Positions 32 through 51,354 of a stretch of DNA of 64,000 bases are shown piece by piece (position 1 is the first letter of the stretch; each line of letters opens with the position of its first letter). The notes beneath the pieces were generated by a model. It did no database searches, was not told the DNA's origin, and was given only the letters and a program-made list of their open reading frames with translations. The translations under genes and the position numbers were made by a program. Where the stretch lies: assembly GCF_038871235.1 (NCBI RefSeq), contig NZ_JAVZIN010000005.1:32001-96000 (forward strand), written 5' to 3'. Source of the stretch: Candidatus Hadarchaeum sp. Lineage in GTDB: Archaea > Hadarchaeota > Hadarchaeia > Hadarchaeales > Hadarchaeaceae.

Positions 32-1345
32 ATGTCAGCCGAGCTCAAACCACTCTTTGAACCTAAATCGATATTTCTAGTTGGAGCTTCAGAACTAACC
101 GGGGAAGAAAAGATTTTCTCGGAACTGTTTCATTCGCTGGTGCAAAATATCTCCAGCTACAAAAAGGGAAAGGTTTTCCTAGTTGACCTCAGCGGTAGGG
201 TCCAGAGCTGTTACAAAAGCGTGAGCAAAATCAAGGTTGGTTTGGACTTGGCTGTTGCCGTGCTGCCTGAGAAATTACTGGCTAGAAACCTGCATAAATT
301 ACTTTCAAGGCAGCCGAAATTCCTAGTAATAGTAGCAAGCAAAGTAGGGGAAGAATTGGCAAAAAAGACGAGAAAAAAAACATTAATCATCGGACCGGAA
401 TCAATTGGGGTGATCAACACAAAAAATGGCTTAATCGCCGTCCCGGGAAGGTGGCAGATTTTCAGCGGGGATGTTGCTTTTATTTCACAGGATAGTTGCA
501 TCGCTGGGAATGTGCTTAGTCTAGCAACGACCACGGGAATCGGCAAATTGGTTAACGTGGATGAAAATTTTGGGATTGATGAATCGGACATCCTGACCTA
601 CCTCTCAAAGGATAAAGAAACCAAGTGCATTTGCGTTTACTTAAAAAAAGTCAGGGACGGTCGGAAGTTCATAAGGGCCTTGTCTGAAACCGTCCCAGAA
701 AAGCCCGTGATAGTTCTCAGCGGGTCAGTTGCTGGTGCAGAAATACTAGAGGCCGCGGTGAAGCAGGCGGGTGGAATCATCGTCCGCGACATCAGGGAGA
801 TGCTGAACGGAGCTGCCGCGCTGGTAAGACAGCCATCCCTTCATGGAGAGAAAGTCGCCGTCATCACCAACGCCTCCGGGCCCGCGGAACTTTTTGAAAC
901 ACACCTCTCGAGAAAAAACATGGTGCTGGCCAAACCGTCCCCAGAAACTGTAGAAAAAATACGAAAACAACACCCGCAGGCCGAAATATCAAATTTTATC
1001 GATCTGGGAAAAATGGCAGATGGTGATGTATACAAACGCGTTGCTGAACTGTTGCTCTCAGACGAAGAGGTAGATGGAATAGTGATGATAAATTCAATGA
1101 AACTCACCAGCTTCGGCCTCGAGGATCTTCGAAAAATCGCGGAGATCGCTAAAAAAATTAAAGAAAAGCCCTTAGTTAACGTTGCGCTCTGTGCCAATGA
1201 CAATGCCGCCTTCAAGGAGATTGTATCCGAATCTACGTTGCCAATTTACTCCCAAGTCGAAGAAGCTGCGGAAGCCATAGATATTCTAAGGTGCTGGGGA
1301 AAATTGCTCAGAAAAACTCCAACCTACTTGAACTCACCTAGGTAA
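32..1345 (+). CDS. Acyl-CoA synthetase (NDP-forming) alpha-subunit-like protein, apparently degenerate
   Basis: N-terminal LFEPKSIFLVGAS CoA-binding start, IIGPESIGVIN, ISQDS, DGRKFIRAL, VAVITNASGP, NFIDLG. The usual GxxAAxSHTG phospho-His loop is missing after KPVIVL. Confidence 0.75.
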   Translation: MSAELKPLFEPKSIFLVGASELTGEEKIFSELFHSLVQNISSYKKGKVFLVDLSGRVQSCYKSVSKIKVGLDLAVAVLPEKLLARNLHKLLSRQPKFLVIVASKVGEELAKKTRKKTLIIGPESIGVINTKNGLIAVPGRWQIFSGDVAFISQDSCIAGNVLSLATTTGIGKLVNVDENFGIDESDILTYLSKDKETKCICVYLKKVRDGRKFIRALSETVPEKPVIVLSGSVAGAEILEAAVKQAGGIIVRDIREMLNGAAALVRQPSLHGEKVAVITNASGPAELFETHLSRKNMVLAKPSPETVEKIRKQHPQAEISNFIDLGKMADGDVYKRVAELLLSDEEVDGIVMINSMKLTSFGLEDLRKIAEIAKKIKEKPLVNVALCANDNAAFKEIVSESTLPIYSQVEEAAEAIDILRCWGKLLRKTPTYLNSPR

Positions 1346-2662
1346 AAATTGGCCGTAGCCAGTTGACTGAACAACCTCTCCGCCTTGGGCAATTATCGCG
1401 CCTCTCAATATCGTCATAACGGGGATTCCCTTGACCTTCATGCCCTCAAAGGGAGTCCAACCCACCTTATAATGGAGCCTATCCGCTGAAATTTTGGTCT
1501 CACTTTTAAGATCCAGAACAGTCAGGTCAGCATCGGCGCCCTCCTGAATGGCTCCTTTACGGGGATAGAGGCCGAACAGCACTGCCGGCTTGGTGCACAT
1601 GCAACTGACCAGCTGCTCCAGAGTAAGCCTGCCCTTGGAAACGCCCTCACTGAGCATTATGGGCAAAAGGGTTTCAACCCCGGGAACTCCTGCAGGTGCC
1701 TCCCAAATGTCGACCCAACCCTTTTCCTTCTCCTCTTTGAGAGCAGGCGCATGATCTGTAGAAACGATATCTATAACTCCTTCTCTAAGTGCCTGCCAAA
1801 GCGCGGCCCGATCTCTATCCGATTTAATGGATGGATTCACCTTCAGATAGGGTCCCAATCTTTCCATATCCTCTGTGGTGAAAATTAAGAAATGAGGACA
1901 GGTCTCAGCGCTTACATGTACCCTTCTCTCCCTCGCCTTTTTAACGGCTTCACAGCCCTCACGCGTGGTGACATGGGCGATATGCGTCCAGCATTCCGTC
2001 CTTTCAGCTGATTTGAGGACCTTCTTTACCGCCTTTTCCTCCGCCTCGTTTGTGCGCGAAATAGCGTGGGCCAGAGGATCTTTTCTCTTTCTCAAGGACC
2101 TTAGGTTCTTGCCAAGGACCTTCTGGTCCTCCGCATGTATGATCGTTACCCCGCCGATCGCTTTAACATAACACATCAACTCTTCGATGTAATCATAAGT
2201 CATCTGGTAGGGCTCGCAGGTAAACGCCTTAAATGACTTTATACCAAAGGAGCTGATCTCTGGAACTTTCTTTATCGATTCCGAACTCATGTTACCCGCG
2301 TGTAAGGAAAAATCGGTGACGCTTGTCTTGCAGCCTAAATCAATGGCTTCCCCTATGCTAGAGCCGGAAACAACGGGTGTGTCTAACGGCATGACAATTA
2401 CCGTTGTCACACCTCCGGCTGCGGCTGCAGAACTACCGCTGGCGAAATCCTCGCGATTCATAAACTTTTTGTCATAAAAATGAACGTGGGAATCAATCAC
2501 TCCTGGTATTATTACCTTGCCCCTGACGTCTATCTCCTCATCTCCTTTGGGAAGACCGCTAACGGCAATTCTGCATATCCTTCCATTTTCAACTGAAATC
2601 TCGCCCTCCACCATGCCCTCAGGCAGAACTATTCTTCCGTTACGAAGGACTAAATCACTCAA
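1334..2662 (-). CDS. Cyclic amidohydrolase (allantoinase/hydantoinase-like, dihydroorotase superfamily)
   Basis: PGVIDSHVHF, AAAGGVTT, FKAF, IHAED, HIAHV, ETCPHFL, TDHAP, GADADL. Lacks the DHOase HxHxR Arg and MPN Asn. Start trimmed to TTG at 2662. Confidence 0.85.
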   Translation of the reverse strand: MSDLVLRNGRIVLPEGMVEGEISVENGRICRIAVSGLPKGDEEIDVRGKVIIPGVIDSHVHFYDKKFMNREDFASGSSAAAAGGVTTVIVMPLDTPVVSGSSIGEAIDLGCKTSVTDFSLHAGNMSSESIKKVPEISSFGIKSFKAFTCEPYQMTYDYIEELMCYVKAIGGVTIIHAEDQKVLGKNLRSLRKRKDPLAHAISRTNEAEEKAVKKVLKSAERTECWTHIAHVTTREGCEAVKKARERRVHVSAETCPHFLIFTTEDMERLGPYLKVNPSIKSDRDRAALWQALREGVIDIVSTDHAPALKEEKEKGWVDIWEAPAGVPGVETLLPIMLSEGVSKGRLTLEQLVSCMCTKPAVLFGLYPRKGAIQEGADADLTVLDLKSETKISADRLHYKVGWTPFEGMKVKGIPVMTILRGAIIAQGGEVVQSTGYGQFLPR

Positions 2663-2684
2663 AAAAATACACCCCAGACAAAAA

Positions 2685-2897
2685 TTATTTGGGTATGGCC
2701 GCAACAGCCGCTCTTATATCCTCTTTACTTAATGTCTTAGCCCCACGATGATCCCTGAGCTTTACGGCCTCCCTAGCCACCCTCAGCGCGTAATCCTCAA
2801 GGACGACACTCAACTCTAGGGCGGCGTCCCGCGAAACGCGAACCTTAGCTGCCCTCTTGATCAGCTTAATCATGGTAGCTATCAAAAACTCCGGCAT
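2685..2897 (-). CDS. Archaeal histone (HMf-like), divergent variant
   Basis: 70 aa with histone-fold motifs RVSRDA, AREAVKL, HRGAKTL, EDI. Confidence 0.85.
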   Translation of the reverse strand: MPEFLIATMIKLIKRAAKVRVSRDAALELSVVLEDYALRVAREAVKLRDHRGAKTLSKEDIRAAVAAIPK

Positions 2898-2990
2898 TTT
2901 CTCTTAAATCAGTGGAACATTCTGATATTTTAACCTGTTGTCTATTCACTAAGGTTTAAACCTACCACAACCATTTCACTAAGGGGTTGA

Positions 2991-4337
2991 ATGGTCGAAC
3001 TTTTGATAAAAAATGGTCTTATTGTAACGATGGATAAAGATCGAAGAATCATTGCCGAGGGCTCCATAGCTATTGATGAGGGCCGGATTGTCTCCGTCAA
3101 AAAAGGCTCAACTACAAAGAGCAAACCTGAGGAGATGATAGACGCCAGAGGAAAAATCGTCATGCCGGGGCTCATTTGCTCACACACCCACCTTTACGGG
3201 ATGCTGCTCCGGGCTGCCCCGCTCAGGATAGAGCCGCCAACCGATTTTTCACAAATACTTCAGCGAGTCTGGTGGCCTATGGACGAAGCCATGACTAAGG
3301 AGGACGCCTACGCTAGCGCTCTAATCTCCTGTCTCGAGTTCATAAAAACCGGGACCACGTTGTTTGCCGACACCTTTTCGGGCCCCAATGCCCTTCCCGG
3401 GGTCCTCGACAGAATTTCAGCTGCTGTGGAGCAGTCGGGTATGCGAGGCATCATCTCATTTGAAGCCACAGAAAGACACACTCACGCCGAGGGGGCAAGA
3501 GGAACCAAGGAAAACGAACGATTCATCCTGAAGGCAAAGAAGGAAAGGAAGCACCGAGTTCATGGGATGTTCAGCATCCATGCCTCTTTCACCGTATCCG
3601 ATGAGCTTTTCAGATACGTCAGAGAGCTGGCCAGTCGCTACAAAGTTCCGCTGACAATCCACGTCTCTGAGGGACTATGTGATCTATATCACAACTACGA
3701 GCGCTACGGAAAGCGAACAGTTGAAAGGCTCCAAGATGCGGAAGTTCTCGGCCCTGATGTCGTGCTGGCGCACTGTGTGCATGTCAACGATGAAGAACTG
3801 GCTATAATCAAGAAGACCGGGGCCAAGGTAGCCCACAATCCCATGAGCAACATGTTAAATGCGGTGGGCGTAGCGCCAGTGGTTAAGATGCTGAACATGG
3901 GAATTTCAGTTGGCCTAGGAAACGACGGTTATATTTTTGACGGCTTCGAAAATATTCGTGCGGCTTTCCTTTTGCATAAAATTGGGCTCAGAGACCCCCG
4001 GGCGATATCCGCCATGGAGGCTCTGGAGATGGCCACCATCAAAGGTGCGGAACTTTACGGACTTGAAAACGAGCTCGGCTCCATCGAACCTGGAAAACTG
4101 GCTGACTTAATTATCGTTAACCCCAAAAGAGCACCAACGCCTATTGTCCCTGAAAGCGTGATCGGACATCTGGTCAACACTGCCAGCGGTAATGACGTCG
4201 AAACGGTAATAGTTGGTGGAAACATACTTATGCGGGACAGAAAGATGCTATCGATGGAAGAGGAGGAAGTAATCAAGACCTCGAGAAAATCCGCCGAGAA
4301 GCTCTGGCAAAAGTTGGGAGCTATAAAAAAGAGATGA
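2991..4337 (+). CDS. SsnA-like metal-dependent aminohydrolase
   Basis: MPGLICSHTHLY, WWPMDEAM, HASFTVSD, IHVSEG, AHCVH, HNPMSNMLNAVG, LGNDG. Confidence 0.85.
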   Translation: MVELLIKNGLIVTMDKDRRIIAEGSIAIDEGRIVSVKKGSTTKSKPEEMIDARGKIVMPGLICSHTHLYGMLLRAAPLRIEPPTDFSQILQRVWWPMDEAMTKEDAYASALISCLEFIKTGTTLFADTFSGPNALPGVLDRISAAVEQSGMRGIISFEATERHTHAEGARGTKENERFILKAKKERKHRVHGMFSIHASFTVSDELFRYVRELASRYKVPLTIHVSEGLCDLYHNYERYGKRTVERLQDAEVLGPDVVLAHCVHVNDEELAIIKKTGAKVAHNPMSNMLNAVGVAPVVKMLNMGISVGLGNDGYIFDGFENIRAAFLLHKIGLRDPRAISAMEALEMATIKGAELYGLENELGSIEPGKLADLIIVNPKRAPTPIVPESVIGHLVNTASGNDVETVIVGGNILMRDRKMLSMEEEEVIKTSRKSAEKLWQKLGAIKKR

Positions 4338-4341
4338 TAAA

Positions 4342-5430
4342 ATGGTGGATCTCTCCGTTGAAATTTGTGGATTGAAATTCAAGAACCCAATAATGCCCGC
4401 AGCCGGGCCAACCGTCCGTGACGCTGACAGCATGCTCAAAGCTGTGGAAGGAGGAGCTGGCGGCCTTGTTGCCAAAACTATCAGCGTTACTCCAGCCCAA
4501 GTACCACGCCCTTGTATTGTAAAGATAAAAGACAGCATTCTAAATGCCGAGCTCTGGTCCGACCTTCCAGTGGAACAGTGGTTGAAAGTTGAATACAAAA
4601 AGGCCAAACAGGCGGGTGTCCCGCTGATAGCGAGCATCGGTTATAAGGCCGATGAAATCAGAGAACTCGCGCCCAAGGTAGCCGCGGCAGGTGTAGACGC
4701 GCTGGAAATTTCTACCCACTACTTGGGAAACGACCCCACCCCAATAGCCGAGGCCACAAAAGCCGCCAAGGAAGTAGTTGACATTCCTGTGTTCGTCAAA
4801 CTCAGCCCAAACGTGCTTGACATCAGCCAGTTTGCCAAGGCTGTTGAAAAGGCAGGCGGGGATGGCATCGTTGCAATAAACACTTTGGGTCCATGCCTCG
4901 CCATTGAGATAGAAAATGCCATGCCCATGCTCGGAAGCGCCCACGGCTATGGCTGGCTCTCAGGACAGGCCATAAAACCCCTAGCGGTTCGGTGCGTGGC
5001 CGACATTGCCCGCGCGGTCAAGATACCGGTAATCGGTGTGGGTGGAATTACTACTGGAAGGGATGCCATTGAGTTCATCATGGCCGGAGCCTCTGCCGTT
5101 CAGTTATCAACCGCGGCTATTATCCGGGGACATAAAATATACGGCATAATTGCCGATGAAATGGCCAAGTTCATGAAGGCAAAAGGATACAACACCATAA
5201 ATGAGATCAAGGGTATGGCACTTCGACATCTTCCGGATCAACCATTGCGTGTAACACCAAAGCCAGTCGAGGTCATTGCCTCAAAATGCACGGCCTGCGG
5301 GCTCTGTGAAAGACACTGTCCCTACAACGCCATCAGGGTCATTGGTAGGGTGGCAAAGGTTGACGCCGCTAGGTGTTATGAATGCGGCCTATGTGTATCC
5401 GTTTGTCCCACTAGAGCCATTAGATATTAA
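4342..5430 (+). CDS. Dihydropyrimidine/dihydroorotate dehydrogenase family flavoprotein (PreA-like) with C-terminal 2x[4Fe-4S] domain
   Basis: FKNPIMPAAGP, VAKT, PVFVKLSPN, AINT, GWLSGQAIKP, IGVGGI; CTACGLCERHCP and CYECGLCVSVCP. Confidence 0.85.
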   Translation: MVDLSVEICGLKFKNPIMPAAGPTVRDADSMLKAVEGGAGGLVAKTISVTPAQVPRPCIVKIKDSILNAELWSDLPVEQWLKVEYKKAKQAGVPLIASIGYKADEIRELAPKVAAAGVDALEISTHYLGNDPTPIAEATKAAKEVVDIPVFVKLSPNVLDISQFAKAVEKAGGDGIVAINTLGPCLAIEIENAMPMLGSAHGYGWLSGQAIKPLAVRCVADIARAVKIPVIGVGGITTGRDAIEFIMAGASAVQLSTAAIIRGHKIYGIIADEMAKFMKAKGYNTINEIKGMALRHLPDQPLRVTPKPVEVIASKCTACGLCERHCPYNAIRVIGRVAKVDAARCYECGLCVSVCPTRAIRY

Positions 5431-5455
5431 GACCATCGCCTTGGGTGGTAGAATC

Positions 5456-5986
5456 ATGGAAGAAGTTATTCTGTGGACACTGCTGATTTTCTTGGCTCGG
5501 CTGACGGATGTCTCAATGGGAACCATGCGCACTATTCTCATAATCAGGGGTAGACGAGGAATAGCGGCTTTTTCAGCTTTTTTTGAGATAATGGTCTGGG
5601 TGCTGGCAGTTAGCCGGGTAATAACTCAACTTGATCGCTGGTATTACATCGTTGCCTTTGCCTTTGGCTTTGCCTGCGGAAATTATCTCGGCAGTTATCT
5701 GGAGGATAAAATCGCGATGGGTTATTGCTTCGCCTATGTTGTCCCCAACCAAAAACGAACAAAACTGGCAGATATTCTCAGGAAAAATGGTTTTGGCGTG
5801 ACGGTATTAAAAGGAGAGGGACTAAAAGGAACTGAATTTGTCTACAACATAGTTCTGAGGAGAAGGGACACCCATCGATTTATAAAAACTCTTGAAGCCA
5901 ACGACAAAAAGGCCTTTTATACCATAATGGACATCCATGCCTTGCATGGCGGATATATGCGACGGGCCACCAAAAGAAAGATTTAA
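5456..5986 (+). CDS. DUF2179/DUF5698-type membrane protein
   Basis: IFLARLTDVSMGTMR, FFEIMVWV, GFACGNYLG, GFGVT, KAFYTI. Start trimmed to ATG 5456 behind a GGTGG RBS. Confidence 0.8.
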   Translation: MEEVILWTLLIFLARLTDVSMGTMRTILIIRGRRGIAAFSAFFEIMVWVLAVSRVITQLDRWYYIVAFAFGFACGNYLGSYLEDKIAMGYCFAYVVPNQKRTKLADILRKNGFGVTVLKGEGLKGTEFVYNIVLRRRDTHRFIKTLEANDKKAFYTIMDIHALHGGYMRRATKRKI

Positions 5987-6019
5987 TTAAATAACCAATC
6001 AAGAACTAAATTCGAACCT

Positions 6020-6817
6020 ATGTCCGAGAATATTTTCAAGAAGATTAATGAACTTTTAGAAAAGGGCGAAACCTTCGCGATCGTGACTATAGTCAGGACT
6101 GAAGGATCCACGCCGAGAAAGGCTGGAGCCAAGATGATCGTCATGCCAGATGGTGGAACCTTTGGAACCATCGGTGGTGACTGTGTGGAAGCAGGAGCGG
6201 TGGCCGAGGCCCTCGAGGCCCTAAAGGAGGGCAAGCCGAAAACATTTACCGTGGCATTAAAGGAGGAAGAACTAGGTGGCATTGGGATGAAGTGCGGTGG
6301 AATGGTTGAGGTGTACATAGAGGTCATCAATCCCGCACCAAGGCTTTTGATCATCGGCGGGGGAAACATTGGAACACAGCTGGCAAAGCTAGGCCATGAT
6401 GTCGGCTTCGCTGTTACTGTTGTCGACCCAGCTGCAAAAAAGGAAAACTTTCCTGAATATGTTGAGGTCGTGCCCGAGCCTGTAGAGAAGGGAATAAAAA
6501 TGACTTCGATCACTCCTCAGACCTACATCGTCATCGCCACCGGACACAAATACGATGAAGATGCGCTTAAAGCCGCGATCAACACTAACGCGGCTTACAT
6601 CGGGATGGTCGGAAGCAAAAGAAAAGCCGCTGTAACTCTTAAAAAATTAATTGAAGAAGGTATGCCTGAAGAAAAAGTTAAAATGGTGCATACGCCGGTG
6701 GGTCTAGACATCGGCGCTGAGACCCCTGAGGAAATTGCCATCAGCATAATGGCAGAAATAATAAAGGAGCGTCGAAAACCCAACGCCTCCGGCAACAGTC
6801 TTAAAATTTCCATTTAA
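6020..6817 (+). CDS. xdhC: XdhC/CoxI Mo-hydroxylase accessory (maturation) factor
   Basis: GSTPRKAGAKM, GTIGG, GMKCGG, YIGMVGSKRK, PVGLDIGAETPEEIAISI. Confidence 0.93.
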   Translation: MSENIFKKINELLEKGETFAIVTIVRTEGSTPRKAGAKMIVMPDGGTFGTIGGDCVEAGAVAEALEALKEGKPKTFTVALKEEELGGIGMKCGGMVEVYIEVINPAPRLLIIGGGNIGTQLAKLGHDVGFAVTVVDPAAKKENFPEYVEVVPEPVEKGIKMTSITPQTYIVIATGHKYDEDALKAAINTNAAYIGMVGSKRKAAVTLKKLIEEGMPEEKVKMVHTPVGLDIGAETPEEIAISIMAEIIKERRKPNASGNSLKISI

Positions 6818-7373
6818 AAGCTTCAAGACCCTCAGGGGTGTCGATATCGGTAATTGCCCATTCTCCTGATTCTAAGGTTCTGAGATCTTCTTTGTGCCTA
6901 TGAATGACATCTCTCAGAAACTGATCTTTACCTAGGCCCAAGATTTCATCAAATAAGCTCCTATCAAACAAGACGGGGTGTCCTTTCTTACCTTTGACGA
7001 CTGGACAAACTACCTTGGCACCGTTTTTCCAAACCTCTATCGCCTTTTTCAAGAAGTCAACCTCGACCAATGGTTGATCTCCCAAGGCCACAAAAACGGC
7101 ATCGAAGTCTTTCAGCATTTTTAATCCTTCTTTAACCGAGGTCACCATACCATCCAGATAGTTAACGTTAACCGTCCACTTCACATCCAACCTCCTCAGA
7201 AGAGGTATGAGTAGTTCAGGTCTGTGCCCCAGTACGACCACGATTTCATCCACAACCTTTTTGAAGGAGTCTATCACCCACTCCAGCATCGGCCGTCCCT
7301 TTATCTCAAGAAGTAGCTTCTGAGTCCCCATCCGTCTTGACTCGCCTGCACCAAGAATAACAGCACCGATCAC
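6801..7373 (-). CDS. mocA: Molybdenum cofactor cytidylyltransferase-like nucleotidyltransferase
   Basis: ILGAGESRRMG, KLLL, LGDQP, GHPVLF, DIDTPE; adjacent to xdhC. Confidence 0.85.
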   Translation of the reverse strand: MIGAVILGAGESRRMGTQKLLLEIKGRPMLEWVIDSFKKVVDEIVVVLGHRPELLIPLLRRLDVKWTVNVNYLDGMVTSVKEGLKMLKDFDAVFVALGDQPLVEVDFLKKAIEVWKNGAKVVCPVVKGKKGHPVLFDRSLFDEILGLGKDQFLRDVIHRHKEDLRTLESGEWAITDIDTPEGLEAFKWKF

Positions 7374-7472
7374 AATATCTCATCTAATGGGACCTAATTA
7401 AAACCCTGCGCGCCAATGAGCGAAAACAAAATATTATTAAAAAAAGAGTTGATGAAAGTATGAGAATCTAAG

Positions 7473-7889
7473 ATGATTGACTTAAAAATGACCCACCTGA
7501 CCAAAAAACAATTCGAGATTCTTAAGCGGAGAATAGCCGGTAAAAGCCTCAGCGAGATCGCCAAAGAGTTGCACACGAGCAGGGCCAACGTCAGCTCCAT
7601 AGCCAAAACAGCCGAGGAAAACGTAAGGAAATCCAAAAACACTTTGAAGCTGATTGAAATGATAGACTGGCCTATAAAAATAGAAGCCAAAGCCGGGTCA
7701 AATGTATACGAAATTTCTGAAAAAGTTTTTCATGAGGCCGATCTAAGGAAAATCAAGATTGCCCACGATTACTCTGAAATCGTAAGGATGATAACCAAGG
7801 TACTCGGGACAGCGGGGCTCAGGCGCAGGAAAGCCCTGAAAGACTTCATCATTTTCGTCAGTGGTGATGGCCGGGTTGAGGTCCTTTAA
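7473..7889 (+). CDS. Tfx-family DNA-binding protein
   Basis: THLTKKQFEIL...G.SLSEIAKELHTSRANVS HTH, followed by the Tfx C-terminal pattern. Confidence 0.85.
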   Translation: MIDLKMTHLTKKQFEILKRRIAGKSLSEIAKELHTSRANVSSIAKTAEENVRKSKNTLKLIEMIDWPIKIEAKAGSNVYEISEKVFHEADLRKIKIAHDYSEIVRMITKVLGTAGLRRRKALKDFIIFVSGDGRVEVL

Positions 7890-7941
7890 AGAGTCGCTTT
7901 ATGACAACTCTCCCCTCGGACAAAATTTACTCTAAAATTGC

Positions 7942-8397
7942 TCAAAATCTCCGGCTGCCACCGTAGTGGCCACGGCTCCGGTAGTCACGTCTCGGTCTAA
8001 ACGGCCTGCGCTCCTGCTGATGCTCCGTCGCGCTGAGATCCACCTCAGTGTTAACGTCCTTTATTTCCTGACCCGTCTTCGTCATCTTTCCATATTTACC
8101 TATATTGAGGCGCATATGGCCCTGCACCAGAGAGACATAGCCGTTTTCTATCGACAGAACATCTCCTTCACATACCGATCCTATTTGCTCCTGCCAAAGC
8201 GAAAGTAAAATCGTGCCCGTCTCGTCCCCCACGCGAGCGTCGGCCACCTTTTTCGGCTCTCCACCGAATCTATCTGGTATCTCCTTGGGCTCCCCGATGC
8301 TCATCACTTTAACCGTGAGATTTACTCGCCTTGATTGCGGCGTGAGATCCTTCACCTTCACCGTTTGTGCCGAAGGACTTTCCCTCGATATTTCCAT
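7942..8397 (-). CDS. ssb: Single-OB-fold ssDNA-binding protein with Arg/Gly-rich tail
   Basis: KVKDL, VNLTVKV, VGDETGTILLSLW, IENGYV, LNIGKYG. Confidence 0.88.
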   Translation of the reverse strand: MEISRESPSAQTVKVKDLTPQSRRVNLTVKVMSIGEPKEIPDRFGGEPKKVADARVGDETGTILLSLWQEQIGSVCEGDVLSIENGYVSLVQGHMRLNIGKYGKMTKTGQEIKDVNTEVDLSATEHQQERRPFRPRRDYRSRGHYGGSRRF

Positions 8398-8518
8398 CTA
8401 TATGCCCGACTCCCCCTATGGCTTCCAAGTATAAATAGCGAGTTGGTGGTGAAAGTTTAACCTGTAAACCTCAAAATCGTTTTTATACCTCCAGATTAGT
8501 TTAAGATAAGTTGATAAT

Positions 8519-10120
8519 ATGGTGTCGGAGTTCAGAATAGAAAAGCTACGGCACAACGGAGTCATAATCCCTACCTATGAGCCAATGGGCTTCTCCATTA
8601 GGTTGCGGGGAAAGACAATAAAGCTGAGCCCGGAACAGGAGGAAATGGCTGTGGCTTGGGTCAAAAAACTTGGAACTGACTACGTGAAAGATCCCGTTTT
8701 TGCGAAAAACTTCGGCACCGATTTCTCGAAAGCACTAGGCCTTGAGGAGCCGGTGCCCATCGAGGAGTTCGATTTCTCGGAGATCATCAAGTGGGTCGAA
8801 AGTGAAAAAGCAAAAAAGGAAAACATGAGCCGTGAAGAAAAGAAGAAGCTCGCGGAAGCCAAAAAGAAAGCCCGGGAGGAAAACAAACTGAAGTATGGTT
8901 ACGCTGAAGTAAATGGACAGCAGGTGGAGATCGCCAACTACACCGTGGAGCCACCCTGTATATTCATGGGGCGTGGCTCGCACCCGCTACGAGGGAGATG
9001 GAAACCGAGAGTGAATTATGAGGACATTATCCTCAATCTCTCGGAAGATGCACCCACGCCACCGACACCAGTAGGGCACAGCTGGGGTGGCAGGGTCTTC
9101 GAGCCCGAATCTCTATGGATAGCCAAGTGGAGAGATAAACTGACTGGTGAACTGAAATACGTCTGGGTGGCTGACAGCGCCTTTTTCAAACAAGAACGCG
9201 AGAAGGACAAATTTGACAAGGCTAACGAACTTGAAAAAATCATAGACAAGGTTCGAACCCACATAAATGAAAACCTCAATTCAGAGGACGTCATGCGCCG
9301 CAAGATAGCCACGGTTGCCTACCTCATCGACACTTTGAAGATGAGGGTGGGTGACGAAAAGGACGAGGATGAAGCAGATACTGTTGGAGCCACAACTCTA
9401 CGAGGCTGTCATGTACAGTTCGAAGACTCGGACACGGTAAAATTCGATTTTTTAGGAAAGGACGCCGTGAGATGGACGAAGAGCCTCAAGCCACCAGCCG
9501 TCGTAATCCGGAACCTGAAATCCTTCATCAACGGACCTGACAAGCCAATTTTTGAAGGCATTCGCTCGGAGATGGTAAATGATTTTCTAGGCGAAGTTGC
9601 TCCTTGGTTAACGGCAAAAGTTTTCCGAACCTACCACGCCACCAAGGTAGTCAGAGAATTCCTTAGCAAGAGCAAGGTGAAACCAGAGGATCCTGAATTC
9701 AAAAAGAAATATGTGGCCACCATGGCAAACCTTGAAGCTGCGATTACCTGTAACCACAAGAGGAAGCTTCCGAAAAACTGGGAGATCTCGTTAGAAAAAA
9801 AGAAGGAGAGAGTAAAAGCACTTGAGGCAAAGCTTGAAGAAGTCATGAAAAAACCAAAAACGCCAGCACGAGAAAGACAGATGAAAAAACTAAAGGAGAA
9901 GATAAAGGAAGCCAAATTAAAAGTTGAACTCGCAACTGCCACAAGAGACTACAACTTGGGAACCTCCCTCAAAAGCTACATCGATCCGCGGGCTTTTGTT
10001 AACTGGGCTAAAAAGGTTTCTTACGATTGGAGAAAATACTATCCCAAGACACTGCAGCGGAAATATGCTTGGGTTGACGAGAGAGAGGAGAAATTCCCCA
10101 CCAGACAGACGGGTGATTGA
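8519..10120 (+). CDS. DNA topoisomerase IB (eukaryote-like, archaeal form)
   Basis: EPPCIFMGRGSHPLRG, MRVGDEK, DTVG, FDFLGKD, LTAKVFRTY, CNHKR, LGTSLKSYIDPR: the complete R-K-R-H-Y catalytic set. Confidence 0.95.
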   Translation: MVSEFRIEKLRHNGVIIPTYEPMGFSIRLRGKTIKLSPEQEEMAVAWVKKLGTDYVKDPVFAKNFGTDFSKALGLEEPVPIEEFDFSEIIKWVESEKAKKENMSREEKKKLAEAKKKAREENKLKYGYAEVNGQQVEIANYTVEPPCIFMGRGSHPLRGRWKPRVNYEDIILNLSEDAPTPPTPVGHSWGGRVFEPESLWIAKWRDKLTGELKYVWVADSAFFKQEREKDKFDKANELEKIIDKVRTHINENLNSEDVMRRKIATVAYLIDTLKMRVGDEKDEDEADTVGATTLRGCHVQFEDSDTVKFDFLGKDAVRWTKSLKPPAVVIRNLKSFINGPDKPIFEGIRSEMVNDFLGEVAPWLTAKVFRTYHATKVVREFLSKSKVKPEDPEFKKKYVATMANLEAAITCNHKRKLPKNWEISLEKKKERVKALEAKLEEVMKKPKTPARERQMKKLKEKIKEAKLKVELATATRDYNLGTSLKSYIDPRAFVNWAKKVSYDWRKYYPKTLQRKYAWVDEREEKFPTRQTGD

Positions 10121-10130
10121 AGTTCCCAAG

Positions 10131-10655
10131 TTAACCTTGGAACTCCTCAAATCCGACTATCTGATTCAAGCGCTTCTTTTTACGGACCAGATGAAGTAGC
10201 TTTGCCATCAGATCGAACTTTTTGCGGGGATATCCCAACGCCAAAAGTGCAATCACCTTATAGTGATCCGGGATTCCTAAAATATCCTTAACCAAGTCCT
10301 CATCAAAGCTGCCCACCCAGCAGGTCCCCAGCCCCTCCGCCGTGGCCGCTATGACCATATTTTGCATCGCAATGGAAACGTCAACCACATGCCATTTTGG
10401 TGAGGACTTGGTATCGCCGCAGCCAACTATCACAACAGGTGCTTCCTTGAGAAAACCGGCAAACCTGCCGCTTTTGGCGATCTTTTCCCTCTTCTCGGCA
10501 TCGGTGACTACGATGAAGTACCAAGGCTGAACATTTTTCGCCGAAGGGGCTAAACGTGCCGCTTCAAGGATTTTCTCAATTTTATCCTTTGGGACCGGTA
10601 CCTTCTCGTAGGCCCGAATTGACCTACGCACCCGGATGGCCTCAAAAACCTCCAT
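10131..10655 (-). CDS. Nitroreductase family protein
   Basis: RRSIRAY, APSAKNVQPW, GLGTCWVG, LGYP. Confidence 0.92.
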   Translation of the reverse strand: MEVFEAIRVRRSIRAYEKVPVPKDKIEKILEAARLAPSAKNVQPWYFIVVTDAEKREKIAKSGRFAGFLKEAPVVIVGCGDTKSSPKWHVVDVSIAMQNMVIAATAEGLGTCWVGSFDEDLVKDILGIPDHYKVIALLALGYPRKKFDLMAKLLHLVRKKKRLNQIVGFEEFQG

Positions 10656-10854
10656 TTTTGCCCCAATTCTGAATAAATTCTTGCTCTTAATTTTATTGTT
10701 GGTGTCGTGATAAATTTCAGCAACATGAATTCAAGTGATACTTCTTCCACCAAGTTATGGAACTCGTCCACTTCCCCAGGTAACCCGTTACCGGAAAAAT
10801 AGTGAAGTCACAATTAATCCTTTTAGAACATCTAACTAGATTAACTTTGATTAC

Positions 10855-11220
10855 ATGGGGGCCTTAGACTATCTAGCCATGGCTGTTCTCGCTGCCATTT
10901 TCATCGGCTTTGGCTTTGCCATGTATTTCAATTATCAGCAGGGCGCTGCCGAGAGGGAATTTGAATTCCAAGCCCAAACTCTGGCCGAGCGAATCAGAGC
11001 CATGGCATCTCAAGATGTCGGGGCAACTGAATATATGGAAATTTTCGTTCCGGCAGGATGTGAACTCGCATTCCATGACAACTCAGTGACAATAAAAATT
11101 GGCAGCAATTCAAGGAGTTTTCCTGTAGGAATCCAAGTCAGCGGGGTCGAATACAGCGGGCAAAAATTAAACCTTATCATCCGCCGTTCTGAGGATGGAG
11201 TATATGTCAGTACAAGCTGA
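10855..11220 (+). CDS. Hypothetical pilin-like membrane-anchored protein
   Basis: Hydrophobic N-terminus (GALDYLAMAVLAAIF), then an amphipathic helix and a beta-rich C-terminus. Confidence 0.55.
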   Translation: MGALDYLAMAVLAAIFIGFGFAMYFNYQQGAAEREFEFQAQTLAERIRAMASQDVGATEYMEIFVPAGCELAFHDNSVTIKIGSNSRSFPVGIQVSGVEYSGQKLNLIIRRSEDGVYVSTS

Positions 11221-12250
11221 TGAAAAAGGCGCCCACAATCTGCCCCTGATAATATTATTTGGTTCTACTCTAGCCATGCTGTTCGCCATTTTGTTCATCT
11301 CCGTGTATGATCAGCAGCTTAATGCCTTGGTCGATCAGCAGGCTGAATCACTTGTGGATGAACTCGCCAAGACTGCCTTTAACTCAACATCCGGGGGGCT
11401 GTACTACATGGACCTACCGAAGGACCTAGGTGGCAGCACCTACTCCATCAACGTAAAGGATAACAGCATTTTTGTGGTGAACATCCTGTCGGGCAGAAGA
11501 GCGGGGGTCTCTTATTCAGCCTTGGTTAACTCCACCATCACTGTGGAGGACGAAAACTTCTTACCCGGAGGCCGAATCTTTTTCATGTTCAACGGAAATA
11601 CCATCATCATCAGCGCCTCACCCATAACAGCAAGTCCGGATAAAATGATCCGCGTTTCAGCCACAGAACCGCCACAGTTCTACCACTTCTCCAAAAAGTC
11701 ACCCAAAGAAGCCGCCGCAATCGTTGCCGCTTATTTTAACACGGAGGAACACTACCCTGAAGAAAATTTGGCCGTTCTAGCCTACACTTGGGAAAGTGAA
11801 AGCTCCATTCTGGTAAAGATAAGAAAAGATGCCGAAGATATCATCATGCGCGTCACCGGCAGTGAAAACCTGACCAAGATTGGAGCGATCGAAAACTGGT
11901 GGGTCGTTGTGTCTCTGGAAGTCGCCGCAATTGATGACAACTTTAATTGGATGGCCTGCCCATCGCTAGAGAACGCTTATCTAACTGGATGGTTGCACGC
12001 TCCCGAAGCAGTTCTCAAACATCTCAGATCTAGAACATGGAGTCGTGTAAGCGACAACTTAATCGTGGTCGTGCCATCAGACGCCAAAATTCAGGCCTCC
12101 GCAGTAACGACAAAGGTATCAACTTACCCTGCTTGGAGAGTTCAGTTCGGAGATTATGTTATCTTTTACCAGATGCTTCCCTGGTGGGAAATGGAAAACA
12201 CTGCCGGGTTTGTCTTCCAATCGTCACCCGAGCTTAAACCGCTCACATGA
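11204..12250 (+). CDS. Hypothetical protein with possible class III (pilin-type) signal peptide
   Basis: DEKG/AHNLPLIILFG followed by a hydrophobic helix; LPKDLGGSTYSI pilin-like segment; overlaps the upstream gene. Confidence 0.55.
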   Translation: MSVQADEKGAHNLPLIILFGSTLAMLFAILFISVYDQQLNALVDQQAESLVDELAKTAFNSTSGGLYYMDLPKDLGGSTYSINVKDNSIFVVNILSGRRAGVSYSALVNSTITVEDENFLPGGRIFFMFNGNTIIISASPITASPDKMIRVSATEPPQFYHFSKKSPKEAAAIVAAYFNTEEHYPEENLAVLAYTWESESSILVKIRKDAEDIIMRVTGSENLTKIGAIENWWVVVSLEVAAIDDNFNWMACPSLENAYLTGWLHAPEAVLKHLRSRTWSRVSDNLIVVVPSDAKIQASAVTTKVSTYPAWRVQFGDYVIFYQMLPWWEMENTAGFVFQSSPELKPLT

Positions 12251-12252
12251 CT

Positions 12253-13503
12253 TCAAGAATACAACACTACTTCCACTTCTTGCCCGGCCTCGAGTCTTTC
12301 CACATTTTCCGGCACCATTATAAAACCGTCTGCTCTGGTCATTGAGCTGAAAGCACTAGAGCCAGTTATCGCTATCGGCTCGGCTAAAATTGCCCTCTGC
12401 TCCCGCCTCAAACAGACTCTCACCACCTCAAGCCTGCCCAAAGCAGAACTAATCTTGCGCGCCAGCTTGGCCCGGACACGGCAACGACCAAAATCGGGAG
12501 GTAGACGCTGCATTGCCAAAAGGGCTGGTCTGACCAGAAGCTCAAACCCCACCAGTGCCGCTGCCGGGAACCCTGAGAGGGCAAAAACTGGTTTTCCTCC
12601 AACTATCCCAAAACCCGAGGGGCTCCCTGGCCTGGTCGCCACCCCGTGGAAGAGTAACTCACCGATTTCGGCTATTGCGTCGGGAACCAAATCCTTTTCC
12701 CCAACGGAGCTGCCACCGGAAACAATAACCATGTCGTATACAGCCGCCTTACGCAGAGTTCGCTTGATGACTTCGAAATCGTCCGGAGCGATTCCTAAGA
12801 TTTTCGGTAGCCCACCGCAACTTTGAACACAGGCCGAGAGTGAATGGGCGTTTGCGTTAACCAACTTCGCTGGAGGCGGTTTTTCGCCGGGCTCCACCAA
12901 TTCACTGCCTGTGGCTAATATCCCAACAACAGGTTTTCTGACCACTTCTATCCTTAACTTGCCTATCGCCGCCAACATTCCTATCTCCTGAGGGCGGAGC
13001 AACTGGCCTTTTTTCAAGGCAATCTCGCCGGCACGGACGTCCTCACCCATGGCTGAGACATTCTTGCCTGGGGTGACTGAAACGAACACCTTAAGTCTAT
13101 TGCCATCCAGCTTGGTATTCTCGACCATCACCGCTGCGTCGGACCCCAAAGGCATCACGGCACCGGTCATTATCTTTGCCGCTTCACCTTTTTTCAAACG
13201 AAGCTTGGGCTGAAAGCCGATCTCAACGGAACCCACCACGCGCAGTTCCACCGGTCTCTGCACGCTGGCCCCGAAGGTATCGCTTGCCCTGACAGCGTAA
13301 CCATCAACGGCGGAGCGGTCGAACGGAGGAACATTAACCTCAGAAACCACGTCCTCAGCAAGAACTCGGCCCAGACCTTTTTCTAATGACACGCTTTCTG
13401 AGTCCAGCGGTTTTATCTTAGAGAATATTATCTTAAGCGCCTCGGAAAGCCTCGTGTACTGGGAGAAGCCGCGCATTCTGACTGACATCTCATTCACGCG
13501 CAT
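12253..13503 (-). CDS. moeA: Molybdopterin molybdotransferase
   Basis: GRVLAED, PPFDRSAVDGYAV, IMTGA, TGSEL, SGGSSVGEKD. Confidence 0.95.
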   Translation of the reverse strand: MRVNEMSVRMRGFSQYTRLSEALKIIFSKIKPLDSESVSLEKGLGRVLAEDVVSEVNVPPFDRSAVDGYAVRASDTFGASVQRPVELRVVGSVEIGFQPKLRLKKGEAAKIMTGAVMPLGSDAAVMVENTKLDGNRLKVFVSVTPGKNVSAMGEDVRAGEIALKKGQLLRPQEIGMLAAIGKLRIEVVRKPVVGILATGSELVEPGEKPPPAKLVNANAHSLSACVQSCGGLPKILGIAPDDFEVIKRTLRKAAVYDMVIVSGGSSVGEKDLVPDAIAEIGELLFHGVATRPGSPSGFGIVGGKPVFALSGFPAAALVGFELLVRPALLAMQRLPPDFGRCRVRAKLARKISSALGRLEVVRVCLRREQRAILAEPIAITGSSAFSSMTRADGFIMVPENVERLEAGQEVEVVLYS

Positions 13504-14005
13504 GCTTGACGATGTGCCCCAGTTCAGGAAGGATCAAACTCATGCCGGTTTCGACGGCATTAGGGGCTCCGGGAAGGCAAAAAACTGGCTTGCCTTTGAT
13601 TATGCCTGCAGACGCTCGAGTCAGTAAAGCGGGTGTCCCCACCATATCATAACCGACCCGGCGAAGAATCTCTCCGAAACCTGGGAGCTCCTTCTCATAG
13701 AGCGGGGTTATCGTCTCTATTGTGACGTCTCTCCTAGCGATGCCCGTCCCACCGGTGATTATTATTGCATTGATTCTGTCATCCTTTAAAAATTCCTTCA
13801 CCGCTCGGCGAATCTTCGTCTTTTCATCAGGGACTATCATCCTCAGCGCTTCATGACCGGACTCCCGAGCTTTCTGGACGATGATCTTTCCAGAAACATC
13901 TTCATCCAGTCCTTTCTCCATCGCTGCCGACCTCGTGTCGCTGACCACAAGCACGGCGATCCTGAGCTTTTTCGGTGCTTTTTTTCTGTGTTCCTCAAAA
14001 CTCAA
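13490..14005 (-). CDS. moaB: Molybdopterin adenylyltransferase MoaB/MogA
   Basis: VVSD, D.SG, ITGGTGIARRDVT, LPGFGE, LPGAPNA. Confidence 0.92.
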   Translation of the reverse strand: MSFEEHRKKAPKKLRIAVLVVSDTRSAAMEKGLDEDVSGKIIVQKARESGHEALRMIVPDEKTKIRRAVKEFLKDDRINAIIITGGTGIARRDVTIETITPLYEKELPGFGEILRRVGYDMVGTPALLTRASAGIIKGKPVFCLPGAPNAVETGMSLILPELGHIVKHARE

Positions 14006-14436
14006 CTTTTCACCTTCTTAACCACGCGAATCTCTTCTATAGCTGTGGTTGGATATTGACCCGCCTCATCTTTTTCCAACCCTTTCACCATATCCCAGAT
14101 AGCTAGAAGCGCTCCGGCCACCCCAGCTAAAGCCTCCATTTCAACTCCAGTCTGCCCGACGCTTCTTACCTCCACCTCGGCACGGACGCCGTTGTCTTCA
14201 ATCTTGAGGTCAACATCAACACCTGTGATCGGGATGGGGTGGGTAAGAGGAATCATATCGGTTGTCCTCTTCACAGCCATTATCGCCGCCGTCTGCGCCA
14301 CCGCAAAAACATCTCCCTTTGGTACTTCCTTTGATCGTATTTTTTTCAGGGTTTCTTTCTTAAGACGGATGAAGCCGCTGGCACGAGACATTCGAAACTC
14401 CTTCTTTTTCCCCCCAATGTCGACCATATGGACCAT
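14002..14436 (-). CDS. moaC: Cyclic pyranopterin monophosphate synthase
   Basis: MVDI, KGDV, IPLTHPI, TGVEMEAL, IWDMVK. Confidence 0.95.
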   Translation of the reverse strand: MVHMVDIGGKKKEFRMSRASGFIRLKKETLKKIRSKEVPKGDVFAVAQTAAIMAVKRTTDMIPLTHPIPITGVDVDLKIEDNGVRAEVEVRSVGQTGVEMEALAGVAGALLAIWDMVKGLEKDEAGQYPTTAIEEIRVVKKVKS

Positions 14437-22103: not shown

Positions 22104-22193
22104 CTTCTCACCCGCCTTCTCTGTTTCCCAGAAGATAATGAAGTGCCCTGTAGTTTTAAATCCCCCTACGCTCAAACTTGTATGGGAGATGGG

Positions 22194-50034: not shown

Positions 50035-50520
50035 CTACGCTTGCGACATCTCAAGAGAAGCTGCCTTTATCGCCTTAATGATGTTGATGTAGCCGGTGCA
50101 TCTGCAGAGGTGTCCCTTCAGTGCCTCCTTTATCTCCTCATCGGTGGGGTGGGGATTCTCATCAAGCAAGGCCTTTGTCATTATTATTATTCCAGGAATA
50201 CAGAACCCACATTGGATGGCACCGTGCTTTACAAAAGCCTCTTGGATCGGATGCAGCTTTCCATTTGTCACCAGACCCTCAATGGTGGTAATCTCAGCAC
50301 CGTCGACGGTCACCGCCAAGGTCAAGCAGGAAAGCCTCGGCTCGTTGTTAACTAAAACCGTGCAGGCACCACAATCTCCCGTCCCGCACCCGTACTTGGT
50401 CCCACACAGCCCCAGCTTATTCCTCAGCACATTAAGGAGAAGTTCATTCGGCTTCACGTTCAGTTCACAATCTCTTCCGTTGACCTTAATCTTAATTTTC
50501 CTCTCTTCCACACCAATCAC
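50035..50520 (-). CDS. Mo-hydroxylase [2Fe-2S] small subunit (CoxS/CutS family)
   Basis: GTKYGCGTGDCGACTV, ITTIEGL, QCGFCIPG, CRCTGY. Start GTG at 50520 or 50511. Confidence 0.93.
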   Translation of the reverse strand: MIGVEERKIKIKVNGRDCELNVKPNELLLNVLRNKLGLCGTKYGCGTGDCGACTVLVNNEPRLSCLTLAVTVDGAEITTIEGLVTNGKLHPIQEAFVKHGAIQCGFCIPGIIIMTKALLDENPHPTDEEIKEALKGHLCRCTGYINIIKAIKAASLEMSQA

Positions 50521-51353: not shown

Positions 51354-51354
51354 C

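Follow-up and report, generated by a model that had tools for sequence, protein, structure and literature searches.

A candidate archaeal SsnA-UacX core of reductive oxopurine degradation in Candidatus Hadarchaeum sp.

A stretch of 64,000 nucleotides from Candidatus Hadarchaeum sp. (contig NZ_JAVZIN010000005.1; C5:32001-96000 of genome G000, hereafter 'the window') encodes an SsnA-like amidohydrolase followed directly by a UacX-type reductase at positions 2991-5430. On balance we regard this pair, with a cyclic amidohydrolase (HYD) encoded at 1334-2704 as its probable helper, as the archaeal UacX/SsnA core of a reductive oxopurine pathway fed, within this genus, by an XdhD-type enzyme encoded on contig C11, and we propose for 2991-5430 the Clostridium-type layout of the two-enzyme 2,8-dioxopurine ('yanthine') core. 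Observed directly are the gene content, the orthology of SsnA and UacX, their synteny and the XdhD-type loop of the C11 enzyme. The genome comprises 1.205 Mb in 16 contigs and is 94.75% complete. The phylum comparison covered 66 Hadarchaeota genomes, with matches accepted at E <= 1e-100 for SsnA and E <= 1e-90 for UacX, and the bacterial references were the E. coli K-12 cluster and three bacterial clusters located by tblastn. Contigs of this genome, other genomes and loci are given below by their C, G and L numbers. The three genes at the centre of the analysis are as follows.

2991-4337, plus strand: SsnA-like amidohydrolase of 448 amino acids (aa), whose best NCBIfam models are those for SsnA (TIGR03314 and PRK07203; family IPR017700).
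4342-5430, plus strand: UacX-type reductase of 362 aa (Pfam DHO_dh, PF01180, and Fer4, 2x[4Fe-4S]).
1334-2704, minus strand: cyclic amidohydrolase HYD of 456 aa (Pfam Amidohydro_1).

In the bacterial pathway urate is described as being converted to 2,8-dioxopurine by XdhD-YgfM or XdhAC and dearomatised by YgfK, with ring opening by SsnA and then HyuA, removal of the ureido groups by YgeW with carbamate kinase and by YgeY, and YgeX acting last (PMC12507026; 10.1101/2025.04.24.650524). In C. difficile the place of YgfK is taken by UacX, a PydA/PreA-like protein with flavin mononucleotide (FMN) and Fe-S clusters that lacks a flavin adenine dinucleotide (FAD) domain (Li et al., 2025, PMC12507026), and C. 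difficile UacX together with E. coli SsnA turned 2,8-dioxopurine into ureidomethyl-hydantoin in vitro (PMC12507026). A clade linked to hyuA, ygeW, ygeY, ssnA, xdh and yqeA had been named 'DHase X1' (Barba et al., 2013, PMC4016543). An archaeal version of the pathway was not found described in the literature searched, a search that lay outside the supplements, which could list archaeal SsnA proteins. The word 'archaea' occurs zero times in the main texts of PMC12507026 and 10.1101/2025.04.24.650524 as consulted, and the relevant passages of PMC4016543 and PMC7332683 do not treat archaeal members, the single 'archaea' of PMC4016543 concerning DHODase 1S. What is new here is thus the archaeal variant of the UacX/SsnA core, the reductase type itself being already published for bacteria. 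The initial annotation of the window, which proposed that a stand-alone PreA-like flavoprotein replaces the DPD-like domain of YgfK, was therefore right in kind, but its novelty is forestalled by the published UacX and by 'DHase X1'.

The product of 2991-4337 is predicted, from its sequence relationships, to be an archaeal-type SsnA, a ring-opening amidohydrolase acting on a reduced oxopurine. Among the eight COG0402 paralogs of the genome it was the top match for all four bacterial SsnA proteins used as queries (E. coli, C. butyricum, E. faecalis and Collinsella), with 192-261 bits to the window protein versus 151-207 bits to the next paralog and with 30-34% identity to bacterial SsnA. In a 31-row tree, an archaeal SsnA clade consisting of the window protein, other Hadarchaeota, Bathyarchaeia and Ca. 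Hecatella stood as sister to all bacterial SsnA tested (support 96/92). The combined clade holds the archaeal proteins, eight full-length bacterial SsnA and two partial SsnA-type rows, with eight paralogs or deaminases falling outside it; the outgroup was formed by the genome's own paralogs, two GuaD proteins and one Anaerolineae fusion protein. The C6 paralog is the next branch out, and the MtaD-type and remaining paralogs lie further out. The homologues in Bathyarchaeia and Ca. Hecatella are 62-67% identical to the window protein. Its metal-binding and catalytic residues are kept (H65, H67, H224, E227, H261 and D312, window numbering), although these HxH, HxxE, H and D residues are also present in the deaminase paralogs and so do not discriminate SsnA from them. 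Thirteen clade-signature columns are common to the window protein and bacterial SsnA, and eight fixed differences separate the archaeal from the bacterial proteins.

In several Hadarchaeota the pair has a further SsnA-family gene in its vicinity (L030:11091-11921, L113:3850-5190, G040:C43:2524-3849, G031:C9:15871-17193, G017:C61:465-1793 and G020:C85:15826-17154). The second copy is of the bacterial type where checked (L030, G054); that of G054 passes both NCBIfam SsnA cut-offs and adjoins a carbamate kinase gene. In four genomes the second copy contains one in-frame TAG or TAA.

The neighbouring gene, 4342-5430, encodes a predicted ferredoxin-dependent dearomatising reductase of the UacX type. 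Its product combines an FMN (DHO_dh) domain with a C-terminal 2x[4Fe-4S] region (two CxxCxxCxxxCP motifs) and has no FAD/NAD(P)H domain; no Pyr_redox_2 gene, which would indicate a PreT partner, was present among the ORFs (open reading frames) scanned at 32-14436. It is 41.7% identical (279 bits) to the UacX of C. butyricum, both proteins being 362 aa long, and the C. butyricum query gave 192 bits for the next of the seven DHO_dh paralogs. A 28-row tree placed it in a UacX clade of 13 rows (support 100/99) together with other Hadarchaeota, the uacX products of three Bacillota urate clusters, one from Thermotogae and five from Anaerolineae. PreA, PyrD and five of the genome's own paralogs fall outside this clade, E. 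coli PreA grouping with the C12 paralog and PyrD with the plain 300-aa protein encoded on C13. All 13 members lack the N-x-S-C-P catalytic loop of PyrD/PreA and have a short loop of the S-T-H-Y type instead, and all 13 share ELWS and GY motifs too; the form E-I-S-T-H-Y occurs in the window, C. butyricum and Anaerolineae proteins. We infer from the alignment, and not from a published criterion, that the S-T-H-Y-type loop is a mark of the UacX family.

The Anaerolineae UacX proteins (L032-L037) are 49-61% identical to the archaeal one and thus closer to it than clostridial UacX, and three of their genes adjoin a bacterial-type SsnA gene. The Chloroflexota are described, in the text consulted, as having neither YgfK nor UacX and relying on a reductase of the F420 type (PMC12507026).

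The two genes are separated by a gap of 4 bp in the window. Across the phylum SsnA was found in 49 of the 66 genomes and UacX in 53, with 47 holding both; in 44 of these 47 the genes are adjacent, on one strand and less than 50 bp apart. The remaining three (G035, G030 and G006) have a truncated SsnA match with the genes on different contigs, consistent with contig ends. In an Erysipelotrichaceae genome, as in C. butyricum and Clostridium sp., the genes run hyuA-ssnA-uacX, with xdh, ygeX and ygeY genes alongside, and three Anaerolineae loci hold ssnA, two small ORFs and uacX together. The C. butyricum chromid cluster (L026) contains guaD, ygeX, ygeY, a D-aminoacylase gene, mocA, a hyuA-like gene, ssnA, uacX (362 aa) and xdh. 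Chance alone would not explain this arrangement, as ssnA and uacX adjoin each other in 44 of the 47 Hadarchaeota genomes that hold both and also in bacteria from three phyla. A contig scan with narrow N-terminal peptide patterns gave 80 loci, 19 of which were annotated, with five more serving as PyrD outgroups only and the remaining 56 being PyrD-length matches. An SsnA-family gene stands beside uacX in ten of its 14 full-length UacX-type loci, the four without one being L032, L035, L037 and L038; the archaeal full-length UacX loci in this narrow scan number five and all belong to Hadarchaeota. The ssnA-like and preA-like genes had initially been taken for relatives of urate-pathway SsnA and of a YgfK substitute, and the trees and reciprocal matches now give them orthologue-level kinship.

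All genes listed in the initial annotation were recovered in place by ORF and domain searches. The other features of the window considered here are the following.

2685-2897, minus strand: archaeal histone gene (Pfam CBFD_NFYB_HMF, E = 3.8e-11).
5456-5986, plus strand: small membrane protein with DUF5698 and DUF2179 (UPF0316-type; Pfam, NCBIfam PRK04164).
6020-6817, plus strand: XdhC-family molybdenum-cofactor insertion chaperone (Pfam XdhC_CoxI and XdhC_C).
6801-7373, minus strand: MocA, molybdenum cofactor cytidylyltransferase (TIGR03310 155.6 bits against a cut-off of 186; Pfam NTP_transf_3).
8519-10120, plus strand: eukaryote-type topoisomerase IB (Topoisom_I_N, Topoisom_I and Topo_C_assoc domains).
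12253-14436, minus strand: moeA-moaB-moaC, general molybdopterin biosynthesis (Pfam and NCBIfam).
20829-22175, minus strand: second threonine-synthase-family pyridoxal phosphate (PLP) enzyme of 448 aa (PALP domain; PRK08197 358 bits, above the cut-off of 303).
48745-49797, plus strand: carbamoyltransferase of 350 aa, below every NCBIfam cut-off.
50035-53700, minus strand: XDH-family molybdenum hydroxylase operon, with molybdenum (51355-53700), FAD (50517-51353) and 2Fe-2S (50035-50589) subunit genes.

HYD is a candidate ring-opening hydantoinase or dihydropyrimidinase-type enzyme and would, as such, be a non-orthologous stand-in for HyuA, the D-phenylhydantoinase of the urate cluster. Its true start is probably about 13 codons downstream, its catalytic set is intact (H73, H75, H190, H244 and D317 invariant, with the Lys column conserved), and the only NCBIfam subfamily model it passes is pyrC_multi (331 bits, above 279). 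The gene was found in 42 genomes. Of the 39 among them with an SsnA, 35 show the two genes on opposite strands and no more than 1.1 kb apart, and in the other four they are split over contigs. The histone gene at 2685-2897, which lies between HYD and ssnA and had been overlooked at first reading, is no part of the pathway; it occupies the same place in G025, G049, G007 and G054, and the conserved neighbourhood also includes an ADP-forming acyl-CoA synthetase pair and topoisomerase IB or PolB. Because housekeeping genes are kept in this neighbourhood, the adjacency of HYD is weaker functional evidence than the ssnA-uacX pair. The idea that HYD and ssnA form a functional unit around a divergent promoter pair is likewise weakened by the histone gene between them.

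Around these genes the topoisomerase IB gene also adjoins the SsnA-UacX pair in G025. Genes for the alpha and beta subunits of a divergent ADP-forming acyl-CoA synthetase (ATP-grasp_5, Succ_CoA_lig) lie at window position 32-1345 on the plus strand and at G000:C5:31304-32032. This synthetase pair is convergent with HYD and is kept in G025, G007 and G042, with the beta subunit only in G054; the alpha subunit scores 211 bits against an acetate-CoA ligase cut-off of 567. The longest start of the ORF for the DUF5698 and DUF2179 protein is at 5276 and the probable one at 5456, as it is only from about residue 61 of the longer ORF that the family models match. This gene stands beside the pair in close relatives only, and in L027-L029 an ORF of 131-176 aa, known by position and length, occupies the corresponding position.

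The molybdenum genes beside the pair match the bacterial placement of mocA. That xdhC and mocA lie next to the pair, as originally annotated, was confirmed, and mocA is likewise found there in E. coli, C. butyricum and an Erysipelotrichaceae genome; its position in the window recalls the arrangements mocA-ygfK-ssnA of E. coli and mocA-hyuA-ssnA-uacX of C. butyricum. The window XdhC is the only copy in the genome and is 37.8% identical to residues 2-256 of E. coli YqeB, and the xdhC and mocA genes are convergent with a 17-bp overlap. MocA makes the molybdopterin cytosine dinucleotide (MCD) cofactor of XDH-family enzymes. Across four genera, mocA lies within 1.5 kb of uacX in ten of the 23 genomes that have MocA.

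The Mo-hydroxylase of the window had been listed with the genes of the pathway; the candidate urate reductase is encoded on contig C11. There, C11:7101-10811 encodes an XdhD-type enzyme in the order FAD-FeS-Mo that shares 39% identity with E. coli XdhD and 43-44% with the XdhL encoded beside hyuA-ssnA-uacX in two Bacillota (L039, L040). It is the only one of the five XDH paralogs to have the XdhD insertion loop with the equivalent of Glu606, a loop and Glu also present in the L039 and L040 XdhL, and it comes top on the XdhD model TIGR03313 with 659 bits versus 342-448 for the other paralogs. From modelling, this loop with Glu606 has been proposed to orient urate in E. coli XdhD (PMC12507026). 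The C11 type occurs in 15 of the 66 Hadarchaeota, all 15 of which also hold SsnA and UacX. The best NCBIfam match of the window enzyme is XdhA_XDHase, at 483 bits versus a cut-off of 780; its XdhL has a short unrelated insert only in place of the XdhD loop with Glu606, and it adjoins the carbamoyltransferase gene only in genus g1 (four of 11 loci). With no XdhD loop and with carbamoyltransferase adjacency in one genus only, we rejected the window operon as the urate reductase.

Candidates for the later steps lie in the window and elsewhere. The carbamoyltransferase encoded at 48745-49797 scores 160 bits against a cut-off of 453 and 152 against one of 500 on the NCBIfam YgeW models, and by score is no YgeW. 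In an 11-row tree it nevertheless groups with the knotted carbamoyltransferase YgeW and with the enzyme that stands in for YgeW in the urate cluster of Clostridium sp. (support 100/100, the branching inside the group being unresolved), and this clade excludes ArgF and PyrB. The genome's ArgF is the product of the C3 gene (470 bits, above 306) and its PyrB that of the C4 gene (348 bits, above 237). The window protein is a candidate for phosphorolysis of the ureido group; its orthologues are 81-97% identical across most genera and occur in 20 of the 23 MocA-carrying genomes. Carbamate kinase and YgeY had been noted as lying outside the window, and whole-genome tblastn with the E. coli proteins gave its only matches on C3 for carbamate kinase and on C16 and C6 for YgeY-like proteins. 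The carbamate kinase gene lies beside that for ArgF and its product is 46% identical to YqeA, whilst the YgeY-like M20 hydrolases of C16 (next to a RidA gene) and C6 have 23-26% identity to YgeY. For the last step, the PLP enzyme encoded at 20829-22175 may be taken as a lead in place of YgeX: a better ThrC match lies on C8, and orthologues of the window PLP enzyme adjoin the carbamoyltransferase orthologue in four of 11 relatives' loci.

The closest known counterpart is the C. difficile-type cluster of XdhD, UacX, SsnA, HyuA, UacY, YgeY and YgeX (PMC12507026), for which the C. butyricum locus L026, the Clostridium sp. locus L039 and the Erysipelotrichaceae locus L040 served as proxies. Like it, the archaeal system has an ssnA-uacX pair in the same order with mocA beside it, a UacX of equal length, domain make-up and derived active-site loop, and a three-subunit XdhD-type enzyme with the Glu606 loop, here encoded elsewhere in the genome; its carbamoyltransferase groups with that of Clostridium sp. 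L039 in the clade that includes YgeW. Unlike it, the archaeal SsnA and UacX form separate sister clades (30-34% and 42% identity), the hydantoinase is not orthologous to HyuA, UacY and YgeX are lacking and YgeY is represented by distant M20 relatives only, the genes are dispersed over several contigs, and most Hadarchaeota relatives lack XdhD as well as every other XDH-family enzyme. The cluster of E. coli and C. sporogenes comprises xdhD-ygfM or xdhAC, ygfK, ssnA, hyuA, ygeW, yqeA, ygeY, ygeX, mocA, yqeB and yqeC (PMC12507026; 10.1101/2025.04.24.650524). Of these, the present genome likewise encodes SsnA, an XdhD-type enzyme (39% identity), a carbamate kinase (46% to YqeA), MocA and a chaperone resembling XdhC/YqeB; unlike in E. 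coli there is no YgfK, only a GltD/NfnB-like protein matching its middle part, the reductase is of the ferredoxin type rather than the NAD(P)H type, and in place of YgeW there is a shorter protein from its clade. The window reductase resembles 'DHase X1' in being a PreA-like FMN/Fe-S protein with neither a PreT nor an FAD partner (PMC4016543). PydAc is a ferredoxin-dependent uracil reductase (Wang et al., 2020, PMC7332683); it has two ferredoxin domains (16 Cys), whereas the window protein has a single C-terminal 2x[4Fe-4S] region (8 Cys).

From these likenesses we infer a working scheme, in which every substrate, the role of HYD and the link between the dispersed genes are provisional. The UacX-type flavoprotein would use ferredoxin to reduce, and so dearomatise, an oxopurine, and the co-transcribed SsnA would open the pyrimidine ring at once, drawing an unfavourable reduction forward. 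HYD would probably then open the remaining five- or six-membered ureide ring as a HyuA stand-in. XdhC and MocA would mature MCD-type molybdenum hydroxylases, the C11 XdhD type supplying 2,8-dioxopurine from urate. Ureido groups may then be taken off by carbamoyltransferases of the YgeW clade (48745-49797 or C3:106733-107746) working with the C3 carbamate kinase, which would give ATP, and by the M20 hydrolases encoded on C16 or C6.

Several results weigh against this scheme. Thirty-two of the 47 genomes with SsnA and UacX have no XdhD-type match. In five pair-carrying genomes of 90-95% completeness (G025, G007, G049, G022 and G008) the XDH-family domain PF02738 was not found, in a search whose control was positive in six of 14 known genomes; nor were MocA or an orthologue of the window carbamoyltransferase found in these five, and carbamate kinase was not found there with the query used, in a search without a positive control. 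As XDH-family enzymes of any kind are much rarer in the phylum than the pair, urate as entry substrate is not secure, and we propose it for this genome only. The UacX loop variants do not track XdhD, S-T-H-Y occurring in genomes with and without it, which suggests that the pair probably has one and the same substrate whether XdhD is present or not; where XDH is absent, urate could not be the source of this substrate by way of XdhD. Taken together, the comparisons suggest that in most Hadarchaeota the pair functions with no molybdenum hydroxylase.

Further such points concern the individual genes. The window SsnA falls under both NCBIfam cut-offs (PRK07203, 408 bits against 444; TIGR03314, 388 against 455.5), a shortfall that is not decisive because the SsnA of C. 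butyricum, itself part of a complete urate cluster, scores still lower on the same models (385 and 350 bits). In some relatives the archaeal SsnA is accompanied by one of bacterial type, a hint that neither makes the other redundant. The UacX tree was built from rows that did not include C. difficile UacX or the uracil reductase PydAc. The hydantoinase-like gene had initially been read as a counterpart of HyuA, but as an orthologue it fails: bacterial HyuA form their own clade (99/97), HYD groups with the genome's other cyclic amidohydrolases, PyrC and AllB, and it ranks fourth of five paralogs for all three HyuA queries. Since the histone gene between HYD and ssnA and other housekeeping genes share the neighbourhood, kinship of the genomes and not a functional tie may explain some of the synteny. 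Finally, tblastn with E. coli proteins gave no match to YgeX in the genome, and the other pathway genes are scattered over at least four contigs.

The rival that these data serve best, and that we hold to be possible though doubtful, keeps the same reduction and ring-opening chemistry and gives it another N-heterocycle as substrate, one needing no molybdenum hydroxylase, such as xanthine or another deaminase-made oxopurine, a pyrimidine or a pterin-type ring, with XdhC, MocA and XDH added later, or incidental, in this genus. It would account for the pair's occurrence without any XDH-family enzyme in all five good genomes and without the XdhD type in 32 of 47, and for a UacX loop that is identical with and without XdhD. 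It also fits the position of the archaeal SsnA and UacX clades as sisters of the bacterial ones, not nested in them, with eight fixed differences in SsnA, and the presence in this genome of at least four similar reductase/amidohydrolase modules, by which substrate diversification within these families is evident. Set against it, all bacterial UacX and SsnA relatives of known context lie in urate or purine clusters, and xdhC and mocA adjoin UacX in four genera. Pyrimidine roles have better candidates in the PreA-like proteins of C12 and C6 (PreA model 315 bits) and in two CodA-type cytosine deaminases and an M20 hydrolase encoded elsewhere, and xanthine is reported, in a section title, not to be the entry compound of the bacterial pathway (Liu et al., 2025, 10.1101/2025.04.24.650524). 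The specific pyrimidine version, with the SsnA-like protein as a cytosine deaminase, the UacX-like protein as PydA and HYD as PydB, we rank low, as separate CodA-type deaminases and PreA-like paralogs exist.

Much of the 1.2-Mb genome is given over to chemistry of this kind; it holds eight COG0402 hydrolases, five cyclic amidohydrolases, six Fe-S-tailed DHO_dh paralogs plus PyrD, five XDH-family large subunits, five carbamoyltransferases, at least five aldehyde-oxidoreductase-family (AOR) genes, an adenine deaminase and two CodA-type cytosine deaminases. Two of its four or more reductase/amidohydrolase modules are directly linked to tungsten AOR genes, namely C6:64806-73642 and C3:106733-112705, each with an Fe-S-tailed DHO_dh paralog and amidohydrolases; one adds a ferredoxin and a PnrA/Bmp-type nucleoside-binding protein and the other a carbamoyltransferase.

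It has been considered from this that a tungsten AOR, not XdhD, prepares the substrate in most Hadarchaeota, the present genome having both molybdenum and tungsten versions. The direct link of AOR to a Fer4-tailed DHO_dh paralog and amidohydrolases in the C6 (67.6-73.6 kb) and C3 (106.7-112.7 kb) modules speaks for this, as do AOR genes in all five XDH-free genomes tested. We think it improbable: no AOR gene stands beside SsnA-UacX in the window or in seven annotated relatives' loci, AOR is common in anaerobic archaea, so that its presence shows little, and to our knowledge no AOR acts on purines.

A further AOR-family gene was noted at C8:72027-75219 (L022:14027-17219), where genes for XDH-type FAD (PF00941) and 2Fe-2S (PF01799) subunits are followed directly by a 587-aa AOR-family (tungsten-type) gene standing where the molybdenum large subunit would be expected; this looks like a hybrid electron module.

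That the window genes are mere lookalikes encoding housekeeping dihydroorotase, dihydroorotate dehydrogenase and 5'-methylthioadenosine/S-adenosylhomocysteine (MTA/SAH) deaminase is very hard to credit: HYD does pass pyrC_multi (331 bits, above 279) and PyrD models do match the reductase, with scores under their cut-offs, but separate PyrB-PyrC (C4), PyrD (C13), ArgF (C3) and MtaD-type deaminase (C2) genes exist, the trees put the window proteins outside those groups, and UacX lacks the catalytic Cys loop of PyrD. The MTA/SAH-type (MtaD/DadD) deaminase is the C2 paralog next to the SAH hydrolase gene (PRK06038, 631 bits, above 609), and a separate PyrD is kept in all five XDH-free relatives tested. 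The groupings with MTA/SAH deaminase, PyrC, PyrD and ArgF that the initial annotation had named as outcomes speaking against it did not occur, these roles being filled by other paralogs.

A broader reading, which we put forward tentatively and as less likely than the urate-fed core, is that SsnA-UacX forms the core of a molybdenum-hydroxylase-independent reductive cleavage of N-heterocycles (oxopurines) ancestral in Hadarchaeota, to which XdhD, XdhC, MocA, the YgeW-clade carbamoyltransferase and carbamate kinase were added in a few genera. If so, the additions would funnel urate into the route and harvest ATP, and the 1.2-Mb genome would be that of a nucleobase specialist running at least four ferredoxin-driven modules for ring reduction in parallel, with tungsten AOR connected to two of them.

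It was not until 2025 that the route by which uric acid is broken down without oxygen was worked out, and then for gut bacteria alone. A conserved SsnA-UacX pair in an archaeal phylum of the deep subsurface and hot springs would extend the pathway to the archaea and would point to the recycling of necromass (nucleic acids) in energy-poor habitats. With most carriers having no molybdenum enzyme, either 2,8-dioxopurine would arrive by another way or the archaeal enzymes would act on a different base, and the many paralogs of this genome would be a useful enzyme source for sorting out substrate specificities in these families.

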